NCBI GenBank assembly: GCA_964521195.1
Contig: CAZFRE010000001.1
Location: forward strand, 575-64,574
Direction: 5' to 3'
Origin: an uncultured Eubacteriales bacterium
GTDB taxonomy: Bacteria > Actinomycetota > Coriobacteriia > Anaerosomatales > JAAXUF01
Length of the DNA stretch: 64,000 nt
Shown: one piece after another, positions 1 through 11,580 of the stretch
How the letters are laid out: the number at the start of each line of letters is the position of its first letter
Numbering within the stretch: the stretch's first letter is position 1
The notes under the pieces: model-generated
Seen by the model: only the letters and a program-made list of their open reading frames with translations
Databases searched by the model: none
What the model was told of the DNA's origin: nothing
Made by a program: the position numbers and the translations under genes

Positions 1-318
1 CCTGTCGTCGCGTACTACCTGCCGACCACGATCCCGTCGTTCCCGTTCCCGCAATACGCCGACAACGCCGACCTGCGGGGCGGCAAGGTGAAGCTCGGCC
101 AGGACCTCGATCGCATCGCCGGTGACTCCCGCCGGGTCTGGATCATCCTGAGCTTCCAGGACATCGAATCCATCGCGGGTGACGCGTACAACACGCTCAA
201 GTGGTTCGAGCGCCATGGCTACAAGACGGTGCAGCACGTCGAGTTCAACAACGTCGAGCTGTACGAACTCGAGGCACCTGATGACCGGCTACCGCTCATC
301 AGGGGGTACGCGCCGTGA
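1..318 (+). CDS. 3' end of a gene truncated by the window edge; possibly the extracytoplasmic tail of a membrane glycosyltransferase
   Basis: Frame 1 is open from base 1 to TGA 316-318, and the stop overlaps the GTG of the GT2 gene (GTGA). Product guess comes from context only. Confidence 0.5.
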   Translation, partial: PVVAYYLPTTIPSFPFPQYADNADLRGGKVKLGQDLDRIAGDSRRVWIILSFQDIESIAGDAYNTLKWFERHGYKTVQHVEFNNVELYELEAPDDRLPLIRGYAP

Positions 319-1892
319 TCTACATCCCTCGTGAGCGCCGCAAGGAGTACCTGCGCACGTGCCGGATCATGTCGGTGATCTCGTTACTCGCTGCGCTCGT
401 GTACCTCAAGTGGCTCTACCTCGATGCGCGCCCCGACAACGCCGTGCTGTTCGTCCTCCTGGTCGCCGCCGAGACGTTCAACGTCGTGCAGGCGATCGGC
501 TTCTGGTACACGATCTCGATCCAGAAGTGGAACGAACCGGTCGCGATGGACTTCTCGGCGAGTGACGAGACGGTCGACATCTTCATAACCGTGTGCGGCG
601 AGCCGCGTGATGTCGTGGAGCGCACCGTGCGCGGCGTCATGGCCGTTCGGCATCCGCGCAAGAAGGTGTGGGTGCTCGACGACGGCCGGAGCCACGAGAT
701 CGAGGTGCTCGCGTACGTCAACGGCGCCGGCTACCTGACGCGCGACTCGCGTCGCGGCGCCAAGGCCGGCAACATCAACGACGCGCTCGCGCGAACGAGC
801 GGCAAGTACGTCGTCATCTTCGATGCAGACCACGTGCCCCGCCCCGACTTCCTCGAGAAGTCGCTTGGAGCGTTCGTCGACCGGCATGTCGCGTTCGTGC
901 AGACGCCGCAGTCCTACGCCAACCGCATCGACAACCGGGTCGCATGGGGGGCGCACGAGCAACAGCGGCTGTTCTACGGGCCGATCATGCGCGGGCGGCT
1001 CTCGGTCAACGCGGCGTTCTCGTGCGGCACCAACATGATCTTCAACCGAGCCGCGCTCGCAGACGTGGGAGGCATGCCGGAAGACTCCATCACGGAGGAC
1101 CTGCGGGTCTCACTGCTGCTGCTTGAGAAGGGCTACCGCTCCGAGTACGTGCCCGTGGTGCTCGCGCATGGCCTCGGTCCTCTCGATGTGAGCGGCTTCT
1201 TCAGCCAGCAGCTTCGCTGGGCGCGTGGCGGCCTCGAGATCCTCTTCAAGCGCAAGCCGTTCTTCAAGGGCATGCGCCCGGCCACCGGCATCCAGTTCGG
1301 ACTGAGCTTCTGGTACTGGTTCACCGGCCTGGCCTATGCGGTGTATCTCATCCTGCCCGTCGCGTTCCTCGTCTTCGGGCAACGCCCCGTGCAGGCCCCC
1401 AACGACTATCCGCTCTACTTCGTGCCCTACATCGTGGTGACGCTCGCCACCATGGCGTACGCGACCGATTTCGACATCACATTCCGCGGCATCTGGTTCA
1501 CGCTCTCGGCGTTCCCGGTGCACATCGCCGCGCTCTTCTCGGCGCTGTTTGGCGGGGATGCGAAGTTCGTCGTCACGTCCAAGAGTGGCACGAGCCGCTC
1601 GCTTCGTCCCGTCGCGGTGCACATCACGGCGATCGCGGTGCTTGCGTTCTCGATCGTGTTCGGTCTGTGGCGCTACGGCTTCAACCCGTCGGTCATGAAC
1701 AACGTCGCCTTCGCGCTCGGGCACATACTGTTGCTGCAGGGCTTCGTGCGCTACGCGCTTCACCCGCTGGTCCCCGAGGGCGAGGTGGGCGGCCGGGGAA
1801 CCGCCGCGGGTCTGGCCGCCGAGAAGCCCGCCAACGTGAGTGAGCACCAGCCGAAGATCACCGTCGCCGAGTGGGGAGGGCAGGAGGAGTGA
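315..1892 (+). CDS. Cellulose synthase-like processive GT2 glycosyltransferase, no PilZ domain
   Basis: Motifs DDG, AKAGN, DAD, QTPQ, FSCGT, TED and QQLRW. Two N-terminal and about five C-terminal TM segments. Confidence 0.9.
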   Translation: MIYIPRERRKEYLRTCRIMSVISLLAALVYLKWLYLDARPDNAVLFVLLVAAETFNVVQAIGFWYTISIQKWNEPVAMDFSASDETVDIFITVCGEPRDVVERTVRGVMAVRHPRKKVWVLDDGRSHEIEVLAYVNGAGYLTRDSRRGAKAGNINDALARTSGKYVVIFDADHVPRPDFLEKSLGAFVDRHVAFVQTPQSYANRIDNRVAWGAHEQQRLFYGPIMRGRLSVNAAFSCGTNMIFNRAALADVGGMPEDSITEDLRVSLLLLEKGYRSEYVPVVLAHGLGPLDVSGFFSQQLRWARGGLEILFKRKPFFKGMRPATGIQFGLSFWYWFTGLAYAVYLILPVAFLVFGQRPVQAPNDYPLYFVPYIVVTLATMAYATDFDITFRGIWFTLSAFPVHIAALFSALFGGDAKFVVTSKSGTSRSLRPVAVHITAIAVLAFSIVFGLWRYGFNPSVMNNVAFALGHILLLQGFVRYALHPLVPEGEVGGRGTAAGLAAEKPANVSEHQPKITVAEWGGQEE

Positions 1893-3088
1893 GCGAGCGC
1901 ACGGCACGGCGGCTCAATCTCACCGGTATCGCCGGGCTCCTCGGCGCGGTGCTTGTGGCTGTCACGCTCGGCGGGTGCGCGACCGGACGAGTCGCGGAGA
2001 ACACGCCGGCACGGCCCGGCAGCGGCATCGACGAGACGTCGTATTCGGTCGAGCCGAAGATGTGCTGGCGCGTCCAGCCACCGGCATACGGCGCCTACAT
2101 CGGCATCTATCGGCCGCCGATGCCGTTCGTCATCGCCGAGTACGACGCGTACCTCGCGACGACATCACCCAAGCCGCCGTCGATCATCATGTGGTACCAG
2201 CCGTGGGCCGAGTCGGGTCCTCACGAGATCGATCAGGCGGCGCTCGCATCGGTCTACCAGCGAGGCGCGGTGCCGATGATCACGTGGGAACCGTGGGACC
2301 CGGGTACGAACGCCAATGCGGTGCAGAACCCCGGAACGAACCAGAACTGGCGGCTGAAGAACATCCTCGACGGCCGCTATGACGGCTACATCCGCCGTTG
2401 GGCAAGCAAGATCAAGGCGGTCAAGGGCCCGGTCATGCTCAGGCCCATGCACGAGATGAACGGCGAGTGGTACCCGTGGGCGGGGACCGTCAACGACAAC
2501 ACCCCCGCGGACTACATCGCCGCCTGGCGCCACATCCACGACATGTTCGAGGCCGAGGGCGCCACGAACGTCACGTGGGTCTGGAGCATCAACGGCGAGA
2601 GCGTTCCCGACACTCGCGAGAACCGGTACGACGTGTACTACCCGGGCGACGAGTACGTCGACTGGGTCGGCCTTTCCGGCTTCAACTGGGGAACCACCGG
2701 CAACAACTCTCAGTGGGAGACGTTTGACGAGATATACACCGCCCCACTGCGTTACGCGCGCACGCTGAACAAGCCGATCGTCATCGCCGAGTTCGCCAGC
2801 GTGGAACAGGGGGGAGACAAAGCCGAGTGGATCTACGACGCCTACAAGCGGATCCGCACGGAGCACCCCGAGGTCGACGCCGTCGTGTACTTCGATTCGT
2901 TCGAAAGCGGCCCGGACGGTACGCAGGACTGGCGGATTCACACGTCGGCAGAGGCATCGCACGCCTACGCCGACTCCCTCGACGACCCGTACTACCTGCC
3001 CGCTCCACCGGCGACCATGCGCAACTGGATGGACGGCCTGTCCAGCCGCAACTGGATGTATCTTCGCTCGCTGTTGCCGGTGTACTAG
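1889..3088 (+). CDS. GH26 glycoside hydrolase, predicted lipoprotein
   Basis: LGGC lipobox; WEPW, RPMHEMNG (acid/base Glu) and IAEFAS (nucleophile Glu). GTG start overlaps the GT2 stop and follows GGAGGA. Confidence 0.88.
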   Translation: MSERTARRLNLTGIAGLLGAVLVAVTLGGCATGRVAENTPARPGSGIDETSYSVEPKMCWRVQPPAYGAYIGIYRPPMPFVIAEYDAYLATTSPKPPSIIMWYQPWAESGPHEIDQAALASVYQRGAVPMITWEPWDPGTNANAVQNPGTNQNWRLKNILDGRYDGYIRRWASKIKAVKGPVMLRPMHEMNGEWYPWAGTVNDNTPADYIAAWRHIHDMFEAEGATNVTWVWSINGESVPDTRENRYDVYYPGDEYVDWVGLSGFNWGTTGNNSQWETFDEIYTAPLRYARTLNKPIVIAEFASVEQGGDKAEWIYDAYKRIRTEHPEVDAVVYFDSFESGPDGTQDWRIHTSAEASHAYADSLDDPYYLPAPPATMRNWMDGLSSRNWMYLRSLLPVY

Positions 3089-3279
3089 CCGGGTAGCGGC
3101 CTCGGCTTCCGCCTGGCAAGGGTCCACGTCACGCCGGCCGTCCGCGGCTCGCGAAAATCTGTGTCGAAACTCACATTCATCGCCCCCAAGGGGTTCAGTT
3201 GAGCGCGCCATCGACCGATACGTTCTGTGACAGATGAACAGTTTTGTGCGGGACCGATAGGGCTTTCTGAAGCCCGATC

Positions 3280-3355
3280 CCGACAAAGGCGAACCCGTCG
3301 CGAGGCGGGGGCGCAAAGCCAAGGGTCTCCCCGAGACAGCCTAGCTACCGAAGGT
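3280..3355 (+). ncRNA. c-di-GMP-I (GEMM) riboswitch
   Basis: GGCGAACC, then P2 CCCGTC-GCGA-GGCGGG (GNRA loop), GCGCAAAGCC, P3 GGTCTC/GAGACAGC and CTACCGAAG. The G20/A47/C92 equivalents are at 3288/3315/3348. Confidence 0.85.
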
Positions 3356-3362
3356 GAAGGTA

Positions 3363-4697
3363 ATGAAGAAGCTCGTCGCAGTCCTCGTTCTCGTTCTCGC
3401 TCTGGCCGCAGCGGCCGCAACCCCCGCATTCGCATCCGTCCGAGTCACGGCGCGCGCCAAGACCCAGTTCGCCCAGGGGACTCCTTCCAAGGTCGTCTTC
3501 ACCGCCAAGCTCACCAAGCGCGGCCACGTCAAGCGCGGCATCGTCCGCTTCAGGATCTACCGCAACGGCGAGTTCGTCCGCTCGATCCGGGCCAAGCGGT
3601 CCGGCAAGTCCTACAAGGCCTCGTGGACCCTCACCGACGACGCCCGAACGCTGGCCAGCACCAGCTCCTACCGCTACAAGGTCCGCGCGACCACCAAGCG
3701 CTCCGGCCGCGGTAAGGCATCGGGTCGCGTCACGATTCCGACCCCGACGCCCATCGTGACCCCCTCGGATCCTACGACCGACACGACCGTTCCCACGGTC
3801 ACCCCGGTCCCCGTACCGGTTCCTGCTCCTACCACCACCCCGACGGCGACTCCGGGCCGCTGGGTCGGCTACTACATCCCGGGCTGCCCGTCGCATCTCG
3901 AGCCGCTCGATGAGCTGCAGTCCAAGATCGGCGCGAAGGCCGCGGTGCTCAACTTCTTCATCGCCGACTCCGAGAGTTTCCCGGCCGCCCGCGTCGAGAA
4001 CGCGCAGAGCAACGGCTCCATCCCGATGGTCACCCTCGAGTTCCACAAGACCGTCGACCTGCGTGGCGTCGAGTCGATCACCAACGGGGAGTGCGACACC
4101 TACATCCGCCGCTTCGCGCAGGCTGCCAAGGCCAACGGCGGCGAGATCTGGCTGCGCCCGTTCCACGAGATGAACGGCGAGTGGTCCGCGTGGTGTGGCG
4201 TCGTCGGCAACAACTCCGCTGCCAAGACGGTCGCCGCCTGGAAGCACATCCACGATGTGTTCCAGCAGGAGGGCGCCACCAACGTGAAGTTCGTCTGGAA
4301 CGTCAACGGCTTGAGCTGCCCCAACACCTCGGCGAACGCGATCGAGAAGTACTGGCCCGGCGACGCGTACGTCGACTACACGTCGATCGACGGCTACAAC
4401 TTCGGCAACCACGCGTCGTGGTCGAGCTGGGCGTCCCCCGAGTCGATCTTCGGCGACGCGTACCGCCGCATCAACAAGCTCAGCGGCAAGCCGATGTTCA
4501 TCGCCGAGATGGCGTGCACCTCCAACGGCGGCGACAAGGCTGCCTGGATGGCCAACTTCTTCGCCAACGTGAAGACGCAGTTCCCGAAGCTCGTCGGAGT
4601 GGTCTGGTTCAATGCCGACAAGGAAGAGGACTGGCGCGTCGAGGAGACCCCGGCCACACTGGCCGTCATGCAGAATCTCGCCGTGACCGGCTACTAG
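3363..4697 (+). CDS. Secreted GH26 hydrolase with Lys/Arg-rich N-terminal domain and Pro/Thr linker
   Basis: Signal peptide ending AFA, PT-rich linker, RPFHEMNG and FIAEMAC. Confidence 0.88.
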   Translation: MKKLVAVLVLVLALAAAAATPAFASVRVTARAKTQFAQGTPSKVVFTAKLTKRGHVKRGIVRFRIYRNGEFVRSIRAKRSGKSYKASWTLTDDARTLASTSSYRYKVRATTKRSGRGKASGRVTIPTPTPIVTPSDPTTDTTVPTVTPVPVPVPAPTTTPTATPGRWVGYYIPGCPSHLEPLDELQSKIGAKAAVLNFFIADSESFPAARVENAQSNGSIPMVTLEFHKTVDLRGVESITNGECDTYIRRFAQAAKANGGEIWLRPFHEMNGEWSAWCGVVGNNSAAKTVAAWKHIHDVFQQEGATNVKFVWNVNGLSCPNTSANAIEKYWPGDAYVDYTSIDGYNFGNHASWSSWASPESIFGDAYRRINKLSGKPMFIAEMACTSNGGDKAAWMANFFANVKTQFPKLVGVVWFNADKEEDWRVEETPATLAVMQNLAVTGY

Positions 4698-4720
4698 TCT
4701 TCAGGTTCGTCTCCTTCACC

Positions 4721-4755
4721 GAAGGCCGTTGCGGCGTGACGCTGCGACGGCCTTC
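4721..4755 (+). terminator. Hairpin, likely terminator after the second GH26 gene
   Basis: GAAGGCCGTTGCGGCG-TGA-CGCTGCGACGGCCTTC stem; no strong U-tract. Confidence 0.55.
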
Positions 4756-4768
4756 GTGCGCTATGAGC

Positions 4769-4805
4769 GCACCGTGGACGGGTGCGAGGCACCCGTCCAC
4801 GGTGC
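4769..4805. repeat. Perfect 17-bp inverted repeat
   Basis: GCACCGTGGACGGGTGC-GAG-GCACCCGTCCACGGTGC. Confidence 0.85.
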
Positions 4806-4865
4806 TACGATTGGTACCCGTGAGCGTGCGGGAGCGCGAGCCGATCACATGATGCGAGGTTGAAG

Positions 4866-6083
4866 ATGGTCAGGCGCCAGATACGCCGAGCAGTCCTTGC
4901 GATGATGCTGGCGGTCGCGATAGTCATCGGTCAGGGGTGCGCCGCCTCGCCCTCGGCCACCACAGGGCCCGCCACCCCCTCGGCCTCGGCTCCGGCGACC
5001 GTGGAGGGATCCTCGGCCGCAGTCGCAACCGCGGCCCCGCCGTCCGCGACCACCGGTACGGCATCCGACCCGGGCTACGCACCCGTCGACGACGAACTGC
5101 TCACCATCCAGATCGGTCAGGACTATGCCGTTCTGCCGCCGGCAAAAGGCGTCTACGCGGGGATCTTCGAACCTCCGGCGCCGTTCGGTTACGAGCGACT
5201 CGAGGCCTACGGCGAGAAGTTCGACAAGCCCGCGGCCATCGTGCTGTGGTACCAGGCATGGGAGCCTGACGAGTGGATCGGCGACTTCAAGGAAGAGAAC
5301 GTTCGCGAGATCCTCAAGCGCGGCGCGATTCCGATGATCACGTGGGAGCCGTGGGTCGCAGGCGCGGGCGTGAAGCAGCCCAAGTACCGCTTGAGCACGA
5401 TCATCAACGGCGACTGGGACGAGTACATCCGGTCGTGGGCGAGGGCGGCGAAGTCCATCGACGGACCGATCATGATCCGTCCGTTCCACGAGATGAACGG
5501 CGAGTGGTATCCGTGGGGCGGCACTGTCAACGGGAACAAGCCCTCAGACGTGAAGAAAGCCTGGATTCACGTGCACGACATCTTCGAGGAAGAGGGCGCC
5601 ACGAACGTCACGTGGGTGTGGAGCATCAACTGGGAGAGCTACCCCAACACGTATGCGAACCGGTTCGACGCCTACTACCCCGGTGACGAGTACGTCGACT
5701 GGACATCGATCAGCGGGTTCAACTGGGGCAAGACCCGCACCCGGCCGCAGGGCCGCTCGTTCACCAACATCTACACCAAGCCGCTCGCGTACCTCAAGAC
5801 CGTGGGCAAGCCCGTGGTCATCTCGGAGATCGGCTGCAACAGCAACGTGGACAAGGCCGCGTGGATCAAGGACGCCTACACCCGCGTGCTCCTCAAGTAC
5901 CCGCACGTGAAGGGCATCTGCTACTACGACAAGCGCGAGCCCAACAACGTGAAGGGCACGCAGGACTGGCAGATCTCGAGTTCGAAGTCGTCCGAGAGGG
6001 CGTATCGCTCGGCGATGTCGTCCCGCATGTACATCGGTGGCTCACCGACCTCGCTGCTCGGCACGGTGACCGCCACGCCGTAG
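4866..6083 (+). CDS. GH26 glycoside hydrolase, predicted lipoprotein
   Basis: GQGC lipobox, Ala/Thr/Pro linker, WEPW, RPFHEMNG and ISEIGC; clearly paralogous to 1889-3088. Confidence 0.88.
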   Translation: MVRRQIRRAVLAMMLAVAIVIGQGCAASPSATTGPATPSASAPATVEGSSAAVATAAPPSATTGTASDPGYAPVDDELLTIQIGQDYAVLPPAKGVYAGIFEPPAPFGYERLEAYGEKFDKPAAIVLWYQAWEPDEWIGDFKEENVREILKRGAIPMITWEPWVAGAGVKQPKYRLSTIINGDWDEYIRSWARAAKSIDGPIMIRPFHEMNGEWYPWGGTVNGNKPSDVKKAWIHVHDIFEEEGATNVTWVWSINWESYPNTYANRFDAYYPGDEYVDWTSISGFNWGKTRTRPQGRSFTNIYTKPLAYLKTVGKPVVISEIGCNSNVDKAAWIKDAYTRVLLKYPHVKGICYYDKREPNNVKGTQDWQISSSKSSERAYRSAMSSRMYIGGSPTSLLGTVTATP

Positions 6084-7659: not shown

Positions 7660-8247
7660 ATGGTCCATGACACCGCCGACAAGATCCTCGCCGCCGCCTC
7701 CGAGCTCATCGCCGAGCGCGGCTACGCGGCGACGACGACGCGCGCGATCGCAGAGCGTGCCGGCGTCAACGAGGTGACGCTCTTCCGGCGATTCGACAGC
7801 AAGCTCGGCATCGTCAGGGCGCTCGGCGCCCGGTGGGCGGAGTCGCAGGCCGGCCATGCGGTGGAGCACGTCGCGGACCCCGAGGACACGCGCGCGACGC
7901 TGCTGTCCCTGGCGCGCATGGAGGTCGCGGGCGCGCAGGCGAACGGCGGTGCCGCGATGCGGCTGGCGTTCGAGGCCCGTTCGGTGCCCGAGCTCGCCGA
8001 GCTGATGGGCGATGGCCCGCGGGCGAATATGACGGGGCTCGCCGAGTACCTTGCCGAGCGCCAAGCTGCGGGCGACCTTCGCGCGGACGTCTCCGCGGCG
8101 GCGATGGCCGAGGCGTTCTTCAGCCTCACCTCGAGCCACGTGATGTACCGGATGATGCTCGGTGTCGACGGCCCGGGCTCCGGCGCGGCCTCCGATGTCG
8201 TCGAGGAACTGGTGGAGCTGTTCCTGAGGGGAGCTGAGAAGCGATGA
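7660..8247 (+). CDS. TetR/AcrR family regulator
   Basis: ILAAASELIAERGYAATTTRAIAERAGVNEVTLFRRF HTH; GGAGG RBS. Confidence 0.92.
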   Translation: MVHDTADKILAAASELIAERGYAATTTRAIAERAGVNEVTLFRRFDSKLGIVRALGARWAESQAGHAVEHVADPEDTRATLLSLARMEVAGAQANGGAAMRLAFEARSVPELAELMGDGPRANMTGLAEYLAERQAAGDLRADVSAAAMAEAFFSLTSSHVMYRMMLGVDGPGSGAASDVVEELVELFLRGAEKR

Positions 8248-8750
8248 AGAAGGTCCTTGTGGTCTATGCGACGAAGTCCGGCTGCACGACCGGAATCGCC
8301 GAGCAGATCGGCCGCGCGCTCACTGAGCGGGGAGCCGACGTCGATGTGTTCTCGGTGGCCGAGGCACCCGCACCCGCCGGCTACGACGCGGTGATCGTCG
8401 GCAGCGGTATTCGCATGGGGCAGTGGCTTGAGGCCGCTCGTGACTGGGTGGGCGCCAGCGTGCAGGCGCTGTCAGCGATGCCCGTGGCCTTCTTCACGTG
8501 TTGCCTGACGCTTGCGCAGGAGCCGGCCAAGGCCGGGGAGGTTCGTGCCTACACCGACGCGCTCATCGAGTCCTGCGGGCTGACCCCAATCGACGTGGGT
8601 CTGTTCGCCGGCTGGAACGAGCCAAGGCGATTCGGGCTGCTCGAGCGCACCATCCTCAAGGCGATGAAGGCGCCGGTCGGTGACTTTCGGGACCTTGCCG
8701 CCGTCGCGGCGTGGACCGACGCCGTCGCGCCCGAACTCGGCATGGAATAG
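8244..8750 (+). CDS. Flavodoxin-domain protein (HemG-like)
   Basis: LVVYATKSGCT, YDAVIVGSGIRMG and GDFRD. Confidence 0.8.
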   Translation: MKKVLVVYATKSGCTTGIAEQIGRALTERGADVDVFSVAEAPAPAGYDAVIVGSGIRMGQWLEAARDWVGASVQALSAMPVAFFTCCLTLAQEPAKAGEVRAYTDALIESCGLTPIDVGLFAGWNEPRRFGLLERTILKAMKAPVGDFRDLAAVAAWTDAVAPELGME

Positions 8751-8753
8751 GGA

Positions 8754-9674
8754 GTGATGCAGGTGAAGACGTTGGACCGGCTGGCACTGCTGTGCGTGAC
8801 CATCGCGCTTCTGGCGGGACTTGCGGCGGCACTCGGCGTGACGCAACGGGGGACCGGGGCGACTGCGCGAGCGACGAGCATCCGAGGCGAGCACTACGAG
8901 TACGCGACGGACGGGATCTACGCGTTCAACCCGCAGCGCGTGGTGGCCGAGGGCGTGGGTTGGGACTGGGTGACCCTGTTGGTGGCCGCCCCGCTCCTGA
9001 TCGCGTGCGCTCCCGGAGTCCGACGGGGGTCGCTGCGGGCTCGGCTGCTCGCGCTCGGTCTCCTCGGCTATCTGTTCTACCAGTACCTGATGTATGCGGT
9101 GTTCTGGGCTTTCGGCCCGCTTCTGCCGCTGTTCATCGCGCTGTATGCGCTCAGCCTCGTGGCGATCGTATGGACGGTGAGCACCATCGACGTGGCAGCA
9201 CTGCCCGCGTGTGTCAGGCCGCGCTTCCCGCGCAAGGGGATGGCGGTGTTCAGCGGCGTGATGGCTGCGCTGCTCGTCGTGATGTGGGCGCAGCGGCTTG
9301 CGACGGCGTACCGTGGCGATCTCGCGGGTGCCGGCCTGCTCGGCATGCCGACGTTCACCGTGCAGGCGCTCGACCTGGGCATGCTCGTGCCGCTCGCCAC
9401 GGCGACCGCGGTCTTGCTGTGGCGCTCCAACCCGTGGGGCTACCTGCTCGGCGTCGTGTTCGCCGTGAAGGGCGCGACGATGGCGGGCGCGATCTGCGCG
9501 ATGCTGATCTCCGCGGCGATCGTCGAAGGGGCGCTCGAGGTGGTGCCGTTCGCGATCTTCGGGGCGGCGACCCTCGTCTCGGCCGGGCTCGCGTGGCGCA
9601 TGCTCGCCAACATCGCCGAGCCGGAAGCGACGGCTAGCGCAGCGACAGCCCCCACTGCACGAGCCACAGCGTGA
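8754..9674 (+). CDS. Multi-pass membrane protein of unknown function
   Basis: About 8 hydrophobic segments; co-oriented with TetR and flavodoxin. Confidence 0.7.
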   Translation: MMQVKTLDRLALLCVTIALLAGLAAALGVTQRGTGATARATSIRGEHYEYATDGIYAFNPQRVVAEGVGWDWVTLLVAAPLLIACAPGVRRGSLRARLLALGLLGYLFYQYLMYAVFWAFGPLLPLFIALYALSLVAIVWTVSTIDVAALPACVRPRFPRKGMAVFSGVMAALLVVMWAQRLATAYRGDLAGAGLLGMPTFTVQALDLGMLVPLATATAVLLWRSNPWGYLLGVVFAVKGATMAGAICAMLISAAIVEGALEVVPFAIFGAATLVSAGLAWRMLANIAEPEATASAATAPTARATA

Positions 9675-9969
9675 CCATGCCCGCGACGAGCGTGGCGATG
9701 GTGTTCTTGGTGCGCAGCGCCACCACGAGCGCGACCAACGCGCCGAGCGTTCGCGCGGGGACCGCCTCGTAGGCGCCGTTGTGCTTCAGGTACAGCGACC
9801 CGGGCACGACGAGCGCGGTGAGCGCCGCGACCGGGACGTAGCGCAGCAGCCGCTCGAGCCACGGCGGGTGCGGTACCCGTCCGTGCAGGATGATCGGGAA
9901 GCTCCGCATCGCCCACGTGCCCGCGCCGAGCAGGCCGATGAGCAACCAGAACTGCGCGGTAGCGCTCAT
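9634..9969 (-). CDS. azlD: AzlD-family branched-chain amino acid exporter small subunit
   Basis: L.YVPVAALTALVVP pattern; ATG overlaps the azlC stop. Confidence 0.8.
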   Translation of the reverse strand: MSATAQFWLLIGLLGAGTWAMRSFPIILHGRVPHPPWLERLLRYVPVAALTALVVPGSLYLKHNGAYEAVPARTLGALVALVVALRTKNTIATLVAGMVTLWLVQWGLSLR

Positions 9970-10718
9970 CGGGCCGCCCCCTCGGACGGCGCGACGGTGT
10001 CGCGCCACGCGCCGTACGCCATGCCGCCGAGCAGCGCGACGATGAGTCCCGACTGCATCGGGAGCAGGGGCACGAGCACGGCCGCCGCCAGTGCGGTCAC
10101 CAACGCGACGCCGACCGCGGTCCTGTTCGCGAGCGATGGCGCGAGCATCGCGAGGAAGACGAGCGGCACCGCGAAGTCGAGTCCCCATGCTGTGGGGATG
10201 ACGGGGCCGAGCAAAGCGCCGAGCAGCGTGGTGACCTGCCATGTGCCGGCGAGCGCCGCCCAGGCGCCGACATAGTACGGCACGACATCGATGTCGTCTC
10301 GGAAGCGACCTCGTGTCATGACCGAGGCGTAGTTCTGGTCGACGAGCATGTAGCCGAGGAACGGCCGCTGCCACTCCGGGGCGTCGGAGAGCAGTGGCGC
10401 GATCGACGTCGAGTAGATGAACATCCGCGAGTTCACGATCAGTGCGGTGAAGAGCGCGACCCACAACGGGGCACCGTCGCCGAACAGCGTGGTGGCGACG
10501 ATCTGGGAAGCGCCCGCGAAGACTATGACCGACATGCCGATCGACTCGGCCACGCCTTGCCCGATCTGGATGACCGCCGTTCCGGCGACCAGGCCGAAGG
10601 GGACGACCCCCACGAGGATGGGGAGCATGTCCTTCACGCCGGCGTTGAAGCTGTGGCGGGAGCGGGATCGCCTGTCGGCAGGTGCCGCCGAGTCCCGGGG
10701 GCTGTGGTTGTGCGGGAT
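9966..10718 (-). CDS. azlC: AzlC-family permease; start uncertain (ATC 10718 or ATG 10628)
   Basis: PILVGVVPFG, SVIVFAGASQ, VNSRMFIYS and LDFAVPLVFLA. Confidence 0.82.
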   Translation of the reverse strand: MPHNHSPRDSAAPADRRSRSRHSFNAGVKDMLPILVGVVPFGLVAGTAVIQIGQGVAESIGMSVIVFAGASQIVATTLFGDGAPLWVALFTALIVNSRMFIYSTSIAPLLSDAPEWQRPFLGYMLVDQNYASVMTRGRFRDDIDVVPYYVGAWAALAGTWQVTTLLGALLGPVIPTAWGLDFAVPLVFLAMLAPSLANRTAVGVALVTALAAAVLVPLLPMQSGLIVALLGGMAYGAWRDTVAPSEGAAR

Positions 10719-10771: not shown

Positions 10772-11500
10772 CTACTCCTCCACAGGCTGCGTCACGTGCA
10801 GGTAGAGCTGGTCGCCGTTTCCGGTACGTATCGACAAAGGGTACACCGAGACGTGCATGCGTCCCGCGATCGTGTCGACCGTCTCGAGGTGGCCCTGTCC
10901 GGTGCGGACACACTCGTCGAGCGGGCAGCCGGGCGGGACAGCACCATCGGCGTGCATCTCTTCGTTGCAGTATATGTAGCGGTCGCACACGCCCGTCTCG
11001 GTGCAGTCGTAGAACGCGCCGTTCGCGATCAGCACCCGGTGCTGAGCGTCGACGATCATCGTCGGGTGCGGGAAGCCACGCAACACCGCCTCCACGCTCA
11101 GCACGTGCTCCGAACCCTCGATGTCACCCGTGAGGTCGTCGAGCAGCCGCGCCAGATCCCACGGCTGGAATGGCTTCGAGATCACATGCGTGGGCCCGGG
11201 GAACGAGGTCGTCTCGGCGCCCTCCTCGGGCAGCACGAGGACTATGGGAAGGCTGCGGTGTGCGAACTGCCTCCGGATGAGGGTGATGAGCTCGACGCCG
11301 GACATATCGGGCATGGACAGGTCGATGACGGCGCAGTCGTAGTCGTCTTCCTCGAGTAGGGCGAGCGCATCGGCGGCGTTTCCGGCTTCGACGGCGTAGT
11401 AGCGCCCGGTGCCTTCGAGCGCGAACGACTCGATGCTCCTTGGGACGAACTCGTCATCGACGATGAGGACACGGTGGGTTGGCACGTGCGTGTCGAACAT
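10772..11500 (-). CDS. Response-regulator receiver plus PAS-like domain, no output domain
   Basis: VLIVDDE, VIDLSMPDMSG and KPF; C-terminal IVDAQHRVLIAN and GCPLDEC. Confidence 0.78.
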   Translation of the reverse strand: MFDTHVPTHRVLIVDDEFVPRSIESFALEGTGRYYAVEAGNAADALALLEEDDYDCAVIDLSMPDMSGVELITLIRRQFAHRSLPIVLVLPEEGAETTSFPGPTHVISKPFQPWDLARLLDDLTGDIEGSEHVLSVEAVLRGFPHPTMIVDAQHRVLIANGAFYDCTETGVCDRYIYCNEEMHADGAVPPGCPLDECVRTGQGHLETVDTIAGRMHVSVYPLSIRTGNGDQLYLHVTQPVEE

Positions 11501-11580
11501 TGAGCCCCCTCCATTTTGCGTGTGTGTTCGATCAGGCGCGAGAACTGGCATATCCTGCGAGATTCGTCACGTCTGCGATA

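Follow-up and report, generated by a model that had tools for sequence, protein, structure and literature searches.

The window analysed here is a stretch of 64,000 nucleotides from an uncultured bacterium of the class Coriobacteriia (Actinomycetota; Anaerosomatales; JAAXUF01; contig CAZFRE010000001.1 of assembly GCA_964521195.1), and its first 6083 nucleotides carry a compact cluster that joins a cellulose-synthase-like glycosyltransferase (GT) to three glycoside hydrolases (GHs) of family GH26. This region (1-6083) has a G+C content of about 65% and holds one partial and four complete genes, all on the + strand. At its left edge lies the 3' end of a GT-C gene (PMT_2/ArnT-like; 1..318), which is cut by the window edge so that 105 codons fall inside the window. 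It is followed by the gene for a BcsA-like processive GT2 synthase/translocase of 525 aa (315..1892), recognized by profile matches, motifs and a structural model, and then by genes for GH26a, a lipoprotein with a CtLic26A-like GH26 domain (1871..3088), GH26b, a Sec-secreted protein with a domain of the same kind (3354..4697), and GH26c, an exported paralog of GH26a (4860..6083). The first three genes are tightly packed. The GT-C stop codon TGA (316-318) overlaps the GT2 start codon GTG (315-317) as GTGA, and the longest open reading frame (ORF) for GH26a begins at GTG 1871 and overlaps the GT2 gene by 22 nt. GTG 1889 is the more likely GH26a start, since it overlaps the GT2 stop codon (1890-1892), again as GTGA, and has a GGAGG about 10 nt upstream; coupling of GT2 to GH26a holds with either start. 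For GH26b and GH26c, the more likely starts are ATG 3363 and ATG 4866, respectively.

By sequence, motifs and predicted fold, the GT2 protein belongs to the BcsA-type processive synthases. It matches the Pfam families Glyco_trans_2_3 (3.5e-25), Cellulose_synt (3e-12) and Glycos_transf_2, and falls below the thresholds of the corresponding NCBIfam models, that is, the equivalog model for CelA (TIGR03030; 260 bits, cut-off 699) and the model for BcsA (NF008558; 194 bits, cut-off 992). In the PDB, residues 17-460 align with E. coli BcsA (E 4.7e-51) and Cereibacter BcsA (2e-42). The set of catalytic motifs is complete, consisting of D122-D123 (VLDDG), D170-x-D172 (FDADH), T260-E-D262 and Q298-QLRW302, and K150AGN, QTPQ at 196 and a gating-loop motif, FVVTSK at 418-423, are also present. 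Of the six hydrophobic helices found, two precede the catalytic domain and four follow it. No PilZ domain was matched by Pfam, and the roughly 40 residues past the last transmembrane helix form a variable tail of low predicted local distance difference test (pLDDT) score. The AlphaFold model as a whole (pLDDT 77.6) superposes on E. coli BcsA (9b8v_E) with a template-modelling (TM) score of 0.81 and a root-mean-square deviation of 3.1 Å over 500 columns. An exact-match look-up of the GT2 sequence returned no contig on record.

All three hydrolases pass the Pfam GH26 model (PF02156; gathering cut-off 20.2 bits), with scores of 62.3 bits for GH26a, 36.3 bits for GH26b and 53.1 bits for GH26c. In each case the closest solved relative is CtLic26A, a β-1,3-1,4-glucanase (EC 3.2.1.73) that forms the GH26 part of CelH from C. 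thermocellum (E 1.6e-55, 3e-54 and 5e-38 for GH26a, GH26b and GH26c), with 43, 41 and 35% identity over the barrel. The HE(x)NG and xAE motifs of CtLic26A are kept, as are both catalytic glutamates, one the acid/base that follows a His and the other the nucleophile, with E109/E222 of CtLic26A aligning to E195/E307 in GH26a, E272/E385 in GH26b and E211/E323 in GH26c. The best E-values against mannanases or xylanases are 4.5e-13, 1.1e-08 and 7.5e-09, so that some 30 to 40 orders of magnitude separate CtLic26A from the next solved relatives; by sequence comparison, the three proteins are lichenase-like and unlike the mannanases. The activities given for GH26 in a 2023 Journal of Biological Chemistry paper are those of β-1,4-mannanases, β-1,3-xylanases and a single β-1,3/1,4-glucanase, which is CtLic26A itself, and no cellulase is given (PMC10470212).

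The three enzymes differ in how they would be held outside the cell and in their accessory parts. GH26a is the only canonical lipoprotein among them, with a signal sequence that ends in the lipobox L-G-G-C; GH26b carries the Sec signal (AFA|S) of a non-lipoprotein, together with a Pro/Thr linker; and GH26c has an atypical box, G-Q-G-C, and a linker rich in Ala, Ser, Thr and Pro. With 45% identity to each other, GH26a and GH26c have in common a loop inserted after ITWEPW; in GH26b, whose identity to GH26a is 35%, the loops are as long as those of CtLic26A. GH26a ends in a C-terminal tail of about 35 aa (window 2981-3088; ...LLPVY) that is missing from CtLic26A, GH26b and GH26c and is kept in the a-type orthologues and in the fused proteins described below; GH26a may use it to dock onto the synthase or the GT-C protein. 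GH26b carries an N-terminal basic domain of about 110 aa (residues about 28-140, window 3354-3900) without a Pfam match, and its orthologue at locus L036 shows a faint FlgD_ig match in this domain, which may be Ig-like and may serve as a carbohydrate- or wall-binding module. Across the window and the related loci, 52 of 52 GH26 copies keep both catalytic glutamates. A regular-expression hint that nine of these copies lacked the catalytic motif was discarded, inspection having found both residues in all nine. A preliminary description of this locus, made from the DNA letters alone, had read it as a processive GT2 (motifs D, D, TED and QQLRW) translationally coupled to a GH26 lipoprotein and followed by two more exported GH26 genes, all three with both catalytic glutamates, and each of these features was located in the present analysis.

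The same description had staked its reading on GH26 genes being linked to the GT2 gene in relatives, and this linkage proved to be pervasive. A scan of species-representative genomes yielded 34 loci, further loci were added by contig look-ups, and the proteins of the window and of neighbouring genes were mapped on all of them. Thirty actinomycetotal loci carry a full-length GT2 relative (L001-L028, L035 and L036), and 21 loci are here termed Coriobacteriia-type, their GT2 being at least 47% identical to that of the window. A GH26 gene lies within 10 kb of the GT2 gene in all 21. Where the contig runs past GT2, an a-type GH26 gene sits directly downstream in 17 of 20 loci; of the remaining three, L011 and L013 carry it 2-3 kb further on and L036 has it fused to GT2. 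The a-type gene overlaps the GT2 stop codon in L035 as it does in the window. A b-type GH26 lies near GT2 in most relatives, either upstream or downstream, and among the related loci just two, L006 and L012, have a c-type copy, which marks GH26c as an accessory, lineage-specific duplicate. The GT2 has homologues at 55-78% identity, which without exception derive from genomes or metagenomes of uncultured Coriobacteriia or Actinomycetota. At two of the mapped loci (L016, 10001-11442; L023, 10001-11455), the GT2 match is split over several frames, and sequencing frameshifts or pseudogenes could account for this.

In several relatives, synthase and hydrolase are joined in a single polypeptide. GT2-GH26 fusions of about 880 aa form five distinct protein clusters (P0073, P0075, P0076, P0080 and P0095), and the example at L036 is one uninterrupted ORF. 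One hydrophobic helix links the two domains and is the counterpart of the stretch of GH26a with the signal and lipobox. Given a cytoplasmic C-terminus of the BcsA type and one extra transmembrane helix, the fused GH26 domain would lie outside the cell, and the lipid anchor would bring GH26a to that position too, on the membrane's outer face.

More distant relatives in Solirubrobacteraceae and Acidimicrobiia, whose GT2 is 35-42% identical to that of the window, keep the GT-C/GT2 pair and differ in the hydrolase. GH8 is encoded directly downstream of GT2 in L019, L021, L022, L025 and L040, and a GH12-like protein together with GH16 downstream of GT2 in L024-L027; L018 has a pyruvyl transferase gene downstream and GH8 upstream. 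Fusions are found here as well. With a Solirubrobacteraceae GT2 as the query, about 20 of the 120 matches listed were GT2-GH8 fusions of 757-941 aa (among P0148-P0237, from metagenome-assembled genomes of Solirubrobacteraceae and Acidimicrobiia), and the minimal locus L039 consists of a GT-C gene and a gene for a GT2-GH8 fusion (8001-10655), with no other polysaccharide genes nearby. Two unrelated hydrolase families have thus become joined, independently, to one synthase family, which argues strongly that the hydrolase does its work within the machine and is no chance neighbour. On family assignments, the downstream position is a β-glucanase slot that is filled by GH26, by GH8, or by GH12 with GH16. 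Linkage and fusions together bear on the proposal that the GH26s are nutritional enzymes for plant, fungal or lichen β-glucan or mannan that sit beside GT2 by chance: CtLic26A does belong to a degradative cellulosomal enzyme, and the secreted, linker-bearing GH26b is typical of degradative enzymes, but the proposal is scarcely credible given the unbroken GH26 linkage, the overlapping stop and start codons, the independent fusions that contradict it, and the fact that sugar transporter or catabolic genes are not adjacent.

The most constant partner of the synthase is the GT-C protein. A PMT_2 gene lies directly upstream of GT2 in 30 of 30 loci, mostly with a 4-nt stop/start overlap, and the GT-C and GT2 pair is found in L039 and L040 as well. 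The fragment in the window shares 55% identity with the C-terminal end of the PMT_2 protein encoded at L035. In relatives, the full protein is a membrane protein of about 520-560 aa with Pfam PMT_2 matches of 6.6e-14 to 2.3e-18, and in NCBIfam it comes closest to the mannosyltransferase MT1671 of mycobacteria (1e-10). Sequence searches of the PDB, with a single sequence or a profile, gave no meaningful match, and a fold search alone was informative: the model of one full-length relative (P0242; pLDDT 87.7, predicted TM score 0.88) matches only GT-C enzymes, including ArnT (TM score 0.52-0.54), ALG9/ALG12 (0.51-0.57) and STT3/PglB (0.45-0.50). The motifs R..W.DE, HPPL, WYSQEARMY and G.H..WP are strongly conserved across the aligned loci and homologues, W-x-D-E being present in 30 of 30 aligned loci and invariant or nearly so in two homologue alignments. 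Conservation of these motifs, including the acidic R..W.DE motif of the first loop, indicates that the GT-C enzyme is probably active.

Most Coriobacteriia-type loci carry additional genes that suggest how such an enzyme might be supplied. They encode a second GT2 of about 380 aa that aligns end-to-end with polyprenyl-phosphate sugar synthases (PgfS 1.6e-40, ArnC 2e-38, PpgS 1e-21), a deacetylase of the CE4 or YdjC/HpnK-like type and a MOP (Wzx-like) flippase, and often also a GT4 and an Acetyltransf_6-type GNAT. In Acidimicrobiia, the GT-C protein is longer, about 890 aa (L018, L019, L040; P0336-P0360), owing to an extra N-terminal half that aligns with the Coriobacteriia flippases by hhalign (probability 88.5%, E 2.7e-6, 360 columns); BLASTP of this extension against a Wzx-like flippase returned nothing, and Pfam does not recognize it. 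The long Acidimicrobiia protein thus looks like a flippase-GT-C fusion, as judged by this profile alignment.

Bcs components were sought at the four loci with gene calls (L035, L036, L039 and L040). No family match to BcsB was found among the called genes within 8-10 kb, and BcsC or other Bcs genes were likewise absent from these loci. Lacking a PilZ domain and a BcsB partner, the GT2 would not be gated by cyclic di-GMP (c-di-GMP) in the manner of Bcs systems, and c-di-GMP control of the PilZ-less synthases of this family, if any, would need another route. Genes for c-di-GMP-type signalling domains were seen at two loci: a GAF-GGDEF-HD protein is encoded about 3 kb from the Solirubrobacteraceae module at L040 (12385-14661), and a GGDEF gene adjoins bgsBA at L037 (248-1273).

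What does the machine make? The polymer is most likely a β-glucan. GH8, GH12, GH16 and GH26 overlap in their action on β-glucans, and β-1,3-1,4-glucan is the single substrate class on record for all four. Further indications come from the synthase itself. A published comparison lists 33 positions that separate the sub-families of BcsA, CrdS (curdlan synthase) and BgsA (PMC6821405, S8 Table, S1 Fig), of which 17 were usable here, as the alignment made for this analysis reproduced the published residues of all three references at these positions. At these 17 positions, which are computational candidates and not proven determinants, the window GT2 agrees with BgsA at 10, with CrdS at 6, with BcsA at 4 and with no reference at 3. 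In the numbering of RsBcsA, which is also used below, Q276, Q298, R299, R309, N321, P336, L351, G387 and F410 are of the BgsA or CrdS type and not of the BcsA type, and H249, Y302 and S357 match BcsA alone. The same comparison gives BcsA four N-terminal helices and a PilZ domain, but CrdS and BgsA two or three helices each and no such domain (PMC6821405); with its two helices and without PilZ, the window GT2 is like the latter pair. Taken together, the hydrolase families of the slot, the residues and the helix count lean toward, without proving, a glucan with both 1,3 and 1,4 bonds. A mixed-linkage, lichenan-like chain in which β-1,4 bonds stand next to β-1,3 bonds comes near to an even chance without quite reaching it, and a plain β-1,4-glucan is a clearly less probable product. 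Overall similarity of the GT2 was rejected as evidence for linkage type, as about 31% identity to BgsA against about 30% to E. coli BcsA does not discriminate; an HlyD-like neighbour and agreement with the published sequence confirm that the BgsA reference locus, L037, is bgsBA.

The strongest competitor, unlikely yet well worth keeping in view, holds that the GT2 makes plain β-1,4-glucan, either cellulose or a cellulose-like wall glucan comparable to that of Streptomyces CslA, and that the GH26s are this lineage's equivalent of the BcsZ endoglucanase. The fold and motifs of the GT2 do match BcsA, the three BcsA-type residues listed above are retained, and the sister clades employ the BcsZ family, GH8, even as a fusion. 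GH16, found in one of the sister clades, does not count among the cellulase families of CAZy, and the 10 BgsA-type against 4 BcsA-type residues at the validated positions also speak against a plain chain, as do three GH26s that are all nearest to a lichenase, in a family whose activities as surveyed include no cellulase (PMC10470212). The preliminary description had proposed that the polymer may be a non-cellulose β-glycan, and its proposal is supported: the lichenase-like GH26s fit it, although the GH8 of the sister clades leaves room for a cellulose-like product. The affinity of the hydrolases to CtLic26A, the upstream GT-C partner and the restriction of the canonical lipobox to GH26a were not part of that description.

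A second alternative supposes a wall- or lipid-anchored glucan in place of a free exopolysaccharide, with GH26a acting mainly as a transglycosylase that moves the cut nascent chain to an acceptor and with the GT-C protein providing a primer or attachment sugar. The GH17-GT2 fusion NdvB offers a precedent, in that its GH domain is used for transglycosylation. GH26a would be suitably placed, tethered or fused at the channel exit, and the minimal locus L039 consists of just the GT-C protein and a GT2-GH8 fusion. GH26 enzymes are retaining and act by double displacement, which makes transglycosylation chemically possible (PMC10470212). On the other side of the balance, no acceptor or ligase was identified. 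GH8, which occupies the same slot in the sister clades, is inverting and cannot transglycosylate in the same way. This alternative is improbable, well behind a plain β-1,4 product.

With these alternatives weighed, the cluster is best read, at somewhat better than even confidence, as a synthase-dependent module for an exopolysaccharide or cell-envelope β-glucan, equipped with a membrane-tethered glucanase and found in uncultured, Coriobacteriia-like Actinomycetota; the window would hold its distal part. In this module, the GT2 would polymerize β-glucan on the cytoplasmic face of the membrane from a nucleotide sugar, most likely UDP-glucose, and thread the chain through its own membrane channel. 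GH26a, which a lipid anchor (in fused relatives, an extra transmembrane helix) would keep at the outer face, would act on the emerging chain in a BcsZ-like role, trimming it, releasing it or relieving jams. GH26b, and in this genome also GH26c, would presumably share the labour as exported paralogs, remodelling or dispersing polymer at a greater distance from the cell. The GT-C enzyme, working on the outer face with a polyprenyl-phosphate sugar, would decorate the chain or attach it to some acceptor. This last proposal follows the logic of the Arn and PpgS-Rv3779 pathways, in which a sugar, once loaded onto polyprenyl phosphate, is deacetylated and flipped before a GT-C enzyme transfers it outside the cell.

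Several points weigh against this reading. The genes for the sugar-lipid synthase, the deacetylase and the flippase are assumed for this genome from its relatives, as they would lie upstream, outside the window. The linkage references were taken from machine-read text, the candidate positions come from a computational paper, and only 17 of 33 were validated. The GT2 is, as noted, about equally distant from BgsA and E. coli BcsA. Identity of 35-43% to one characterized lichenase does not fix substrate specificity, and the loop insertion of GH26a and GH26c is not present in CtLic26A. The GH8 of the sister clades would fit plain cellulose, and the products of the GH26 and GH8 clades need not be the same, since the two differ consistently at several discriminating positions (302 Y/F, 317 S/C, 387 G/C, 351 L/H). 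Finally, the one public sequencing run found to hold any of this DNA is a wastewater metagenome that covers 7% of the words sampled, and the search returned no RNA data.

It is enticing to go a step further and to speculate that the invariant and translationally coupled pair of GT-C and synthase, with its tethered or fused hydrolase, constitutes a new kind of polysaccharide machine that merges two normally separate pathways. A channel would extrude mixed-linkage β-glucan, a GT-C enzyme fed by lipid-linked sugars of the Arn/PpgS type, through a polyprenyl-phosphate HexNAc synthase, a deacetylase and a flippase, would add an amino sugar or mannose or would anchor the chain, and the hydrolase would set chain length, with the hydrolase family, and perhaps the linkage pattern, swapped between actinobacterial classes (GH26, GH8, or GH12 with GH16). 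As a whole, this bolder picture is rather unlikely.

The remaining features of the region concern its expression and surroundings. Two long perfect hairpins lie between GH26b and GH26c (4715..4805, + strand) and are a possible terminator or processing site. The spacer at 4695-4860 folds with -99.9 kcal/mol (z -7.4; 0 of 200 shuffles as stable) into stems of about 20 and 15 bp, the sequence of the second stem being single-copy in the window; no T-tract was seen at the hairpins. GH26c, sitting behind these two strong hairpins, may be on its own transcript. The spacer at 3086-3360 shows no unusual RNA structure (z -0.8), and a scan for sigma-70 promoters and terminators gave no result beyond chance. 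Downstream of 6083, the genes are unrelated and encode a glyoxalase, a hemerythrin, a GyrI-like protein, a TetR regulator, a flavodoxin, AzlC, a response regulator and a phosphoesterase. One gene of the window (10772-11551, - strand) encodes a response-regulator receiver domain; the roughly 120 aa behind it contain conserved Cys and His residues and match no Pfam family.

Relative to known synthase-dependent systems, what is new in the β-glucan module is its invariant GT-C partner and its swappable, sometimes fused, glucanase. The literature found on bacterial synthesis of mixed-linkage β-glucan covers two organisms, S. meliloti and Romboutsia ilealis, and the present family of loci, in which orthologous synthases are paired or fused with different glucanase families and differ at published candidate specificity positions, offers a compact natural test set for how a GT2 decides between 1,3 and 1,4 linkages. 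Its homologues number in the thousands, those seen all being from uncultured genomes, and they point to a widespread and unstudied envelope or matrix polymer system in Actinomycetota of soil, groundwater and wastewater. The system may also represent a new mode of decorating a synthase-made polymer, by a GT-C enzyme and a lipid-linked sugar, analogous to the formation of phosphoethanolamine cellulose, and the tethered lichenase-type GH26s could serve as tools for β-glucan analysis.

No precedent was found in the literature for a GT-C enzyme coupled to a BcsA-like synthase (searched as GT39 or GT-C with BcsA), and literature on GH26 with cellulose synthase or exopolysaccharide, or on Coriobacteriia, describes no such system. 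A survey of synthase-dependent operons reports nothing alike (PMC7112194), and, according to a 2026 paper on Actinoplanes, a Wzx/Wzy cluster with GH26 has yet to be characterized (PMC13390465). The resemblances are therefore best drawn part by part. CtLic26A, the nearest hydrolase, is a degradative cellulosomal module, whereas the GH26s here would be tethered or secreted partners of a synthase, and it lacks both the loop after ITWEPW and the C-terminal tail of GH26a. Among mixed-linkage systems, BgsBA of S. meliloti likewise relies on a BcsA-superfamily GT2 with few N-terminal transmembrane helices and no PilZ domain. It differs in that BgsA has 669 aa with a C-terminal c-di-GMP-binding region of about 100 aa, in its HlyD-like partner BgsB and its adjacent diguanylate cyclase gene (PMC10374906, PMC6821405), in having neither an adjacent glycoside hydrolase nor a GT-C protein, and in belonging to a diderm proteobacterium. 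RiGT2 of R. ilealis is a single BcsA-like GT2 from a monoderm that makes (1,3;1,4)-β-glucan without BcsB, but is set apart, by its description, through its need for a PilZ domain (PMC10374906); the terms 'glycoside hydrolase' and 'GH26' are absent from the main text of that paper. The CslA-GlxA system of Streptomyces, compared here by description, is another actinobacterial case of a PilZ-less cellulose-synthase-like GT2 with extracytoplasmic partners that lay down β-glucan, but its partner is the copper radical oxidase GlxA, its reported product is β-(1,4)-glucan, and it has no GH26 (PMC13432765).

For the GT-C side of the module, the ArnC-ArnD-ArnEF-ArnT pathway, which places aminoarabinose on lipid A, parallels the accessory set of the relatives with its sugar-lipid GT2, deacetylase, flippase and GT-C enzyme, although the GT-C protein described here resembles ArnT at the level of fold only (TM score about 0.53, 12% identity). 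The mycobacterial PpgS/Rv3779 pair follows the same logic, and there Rv3779 does decorate a polysaccharide, adding galactosamine to arabinogalactan (PMC3485146). As a whole, the module would function in the manner of the Bcs system of E. coli and Cereibacter sphaeroides, composed of BcsA-BcsB and the GH8 enzyme BcsZ, which shares the processive GT2 with its D,D,D,QxxRW and FxVTxK motifs, the same predicted fold, and a dedicated exported glucanase gene beside the synthase. BcsA has four N-terminal transmembrane helices and a PilZ domain, whereas the window GT2 has two and none, BcsB is missing from the four gene-called loci, the glucanase here is a lichenase-type GH26 that can be fused to the synthase, and the invariant partner is a GT-C glycosyltransferase. 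Even so, the membrane enzyme BcsG of E. coli, which modifies the cellulose chain on the outside of the cell while docked on BcsA (PDB 9fmz), provides a functional analogue of the role proposed for the GT-C protein.

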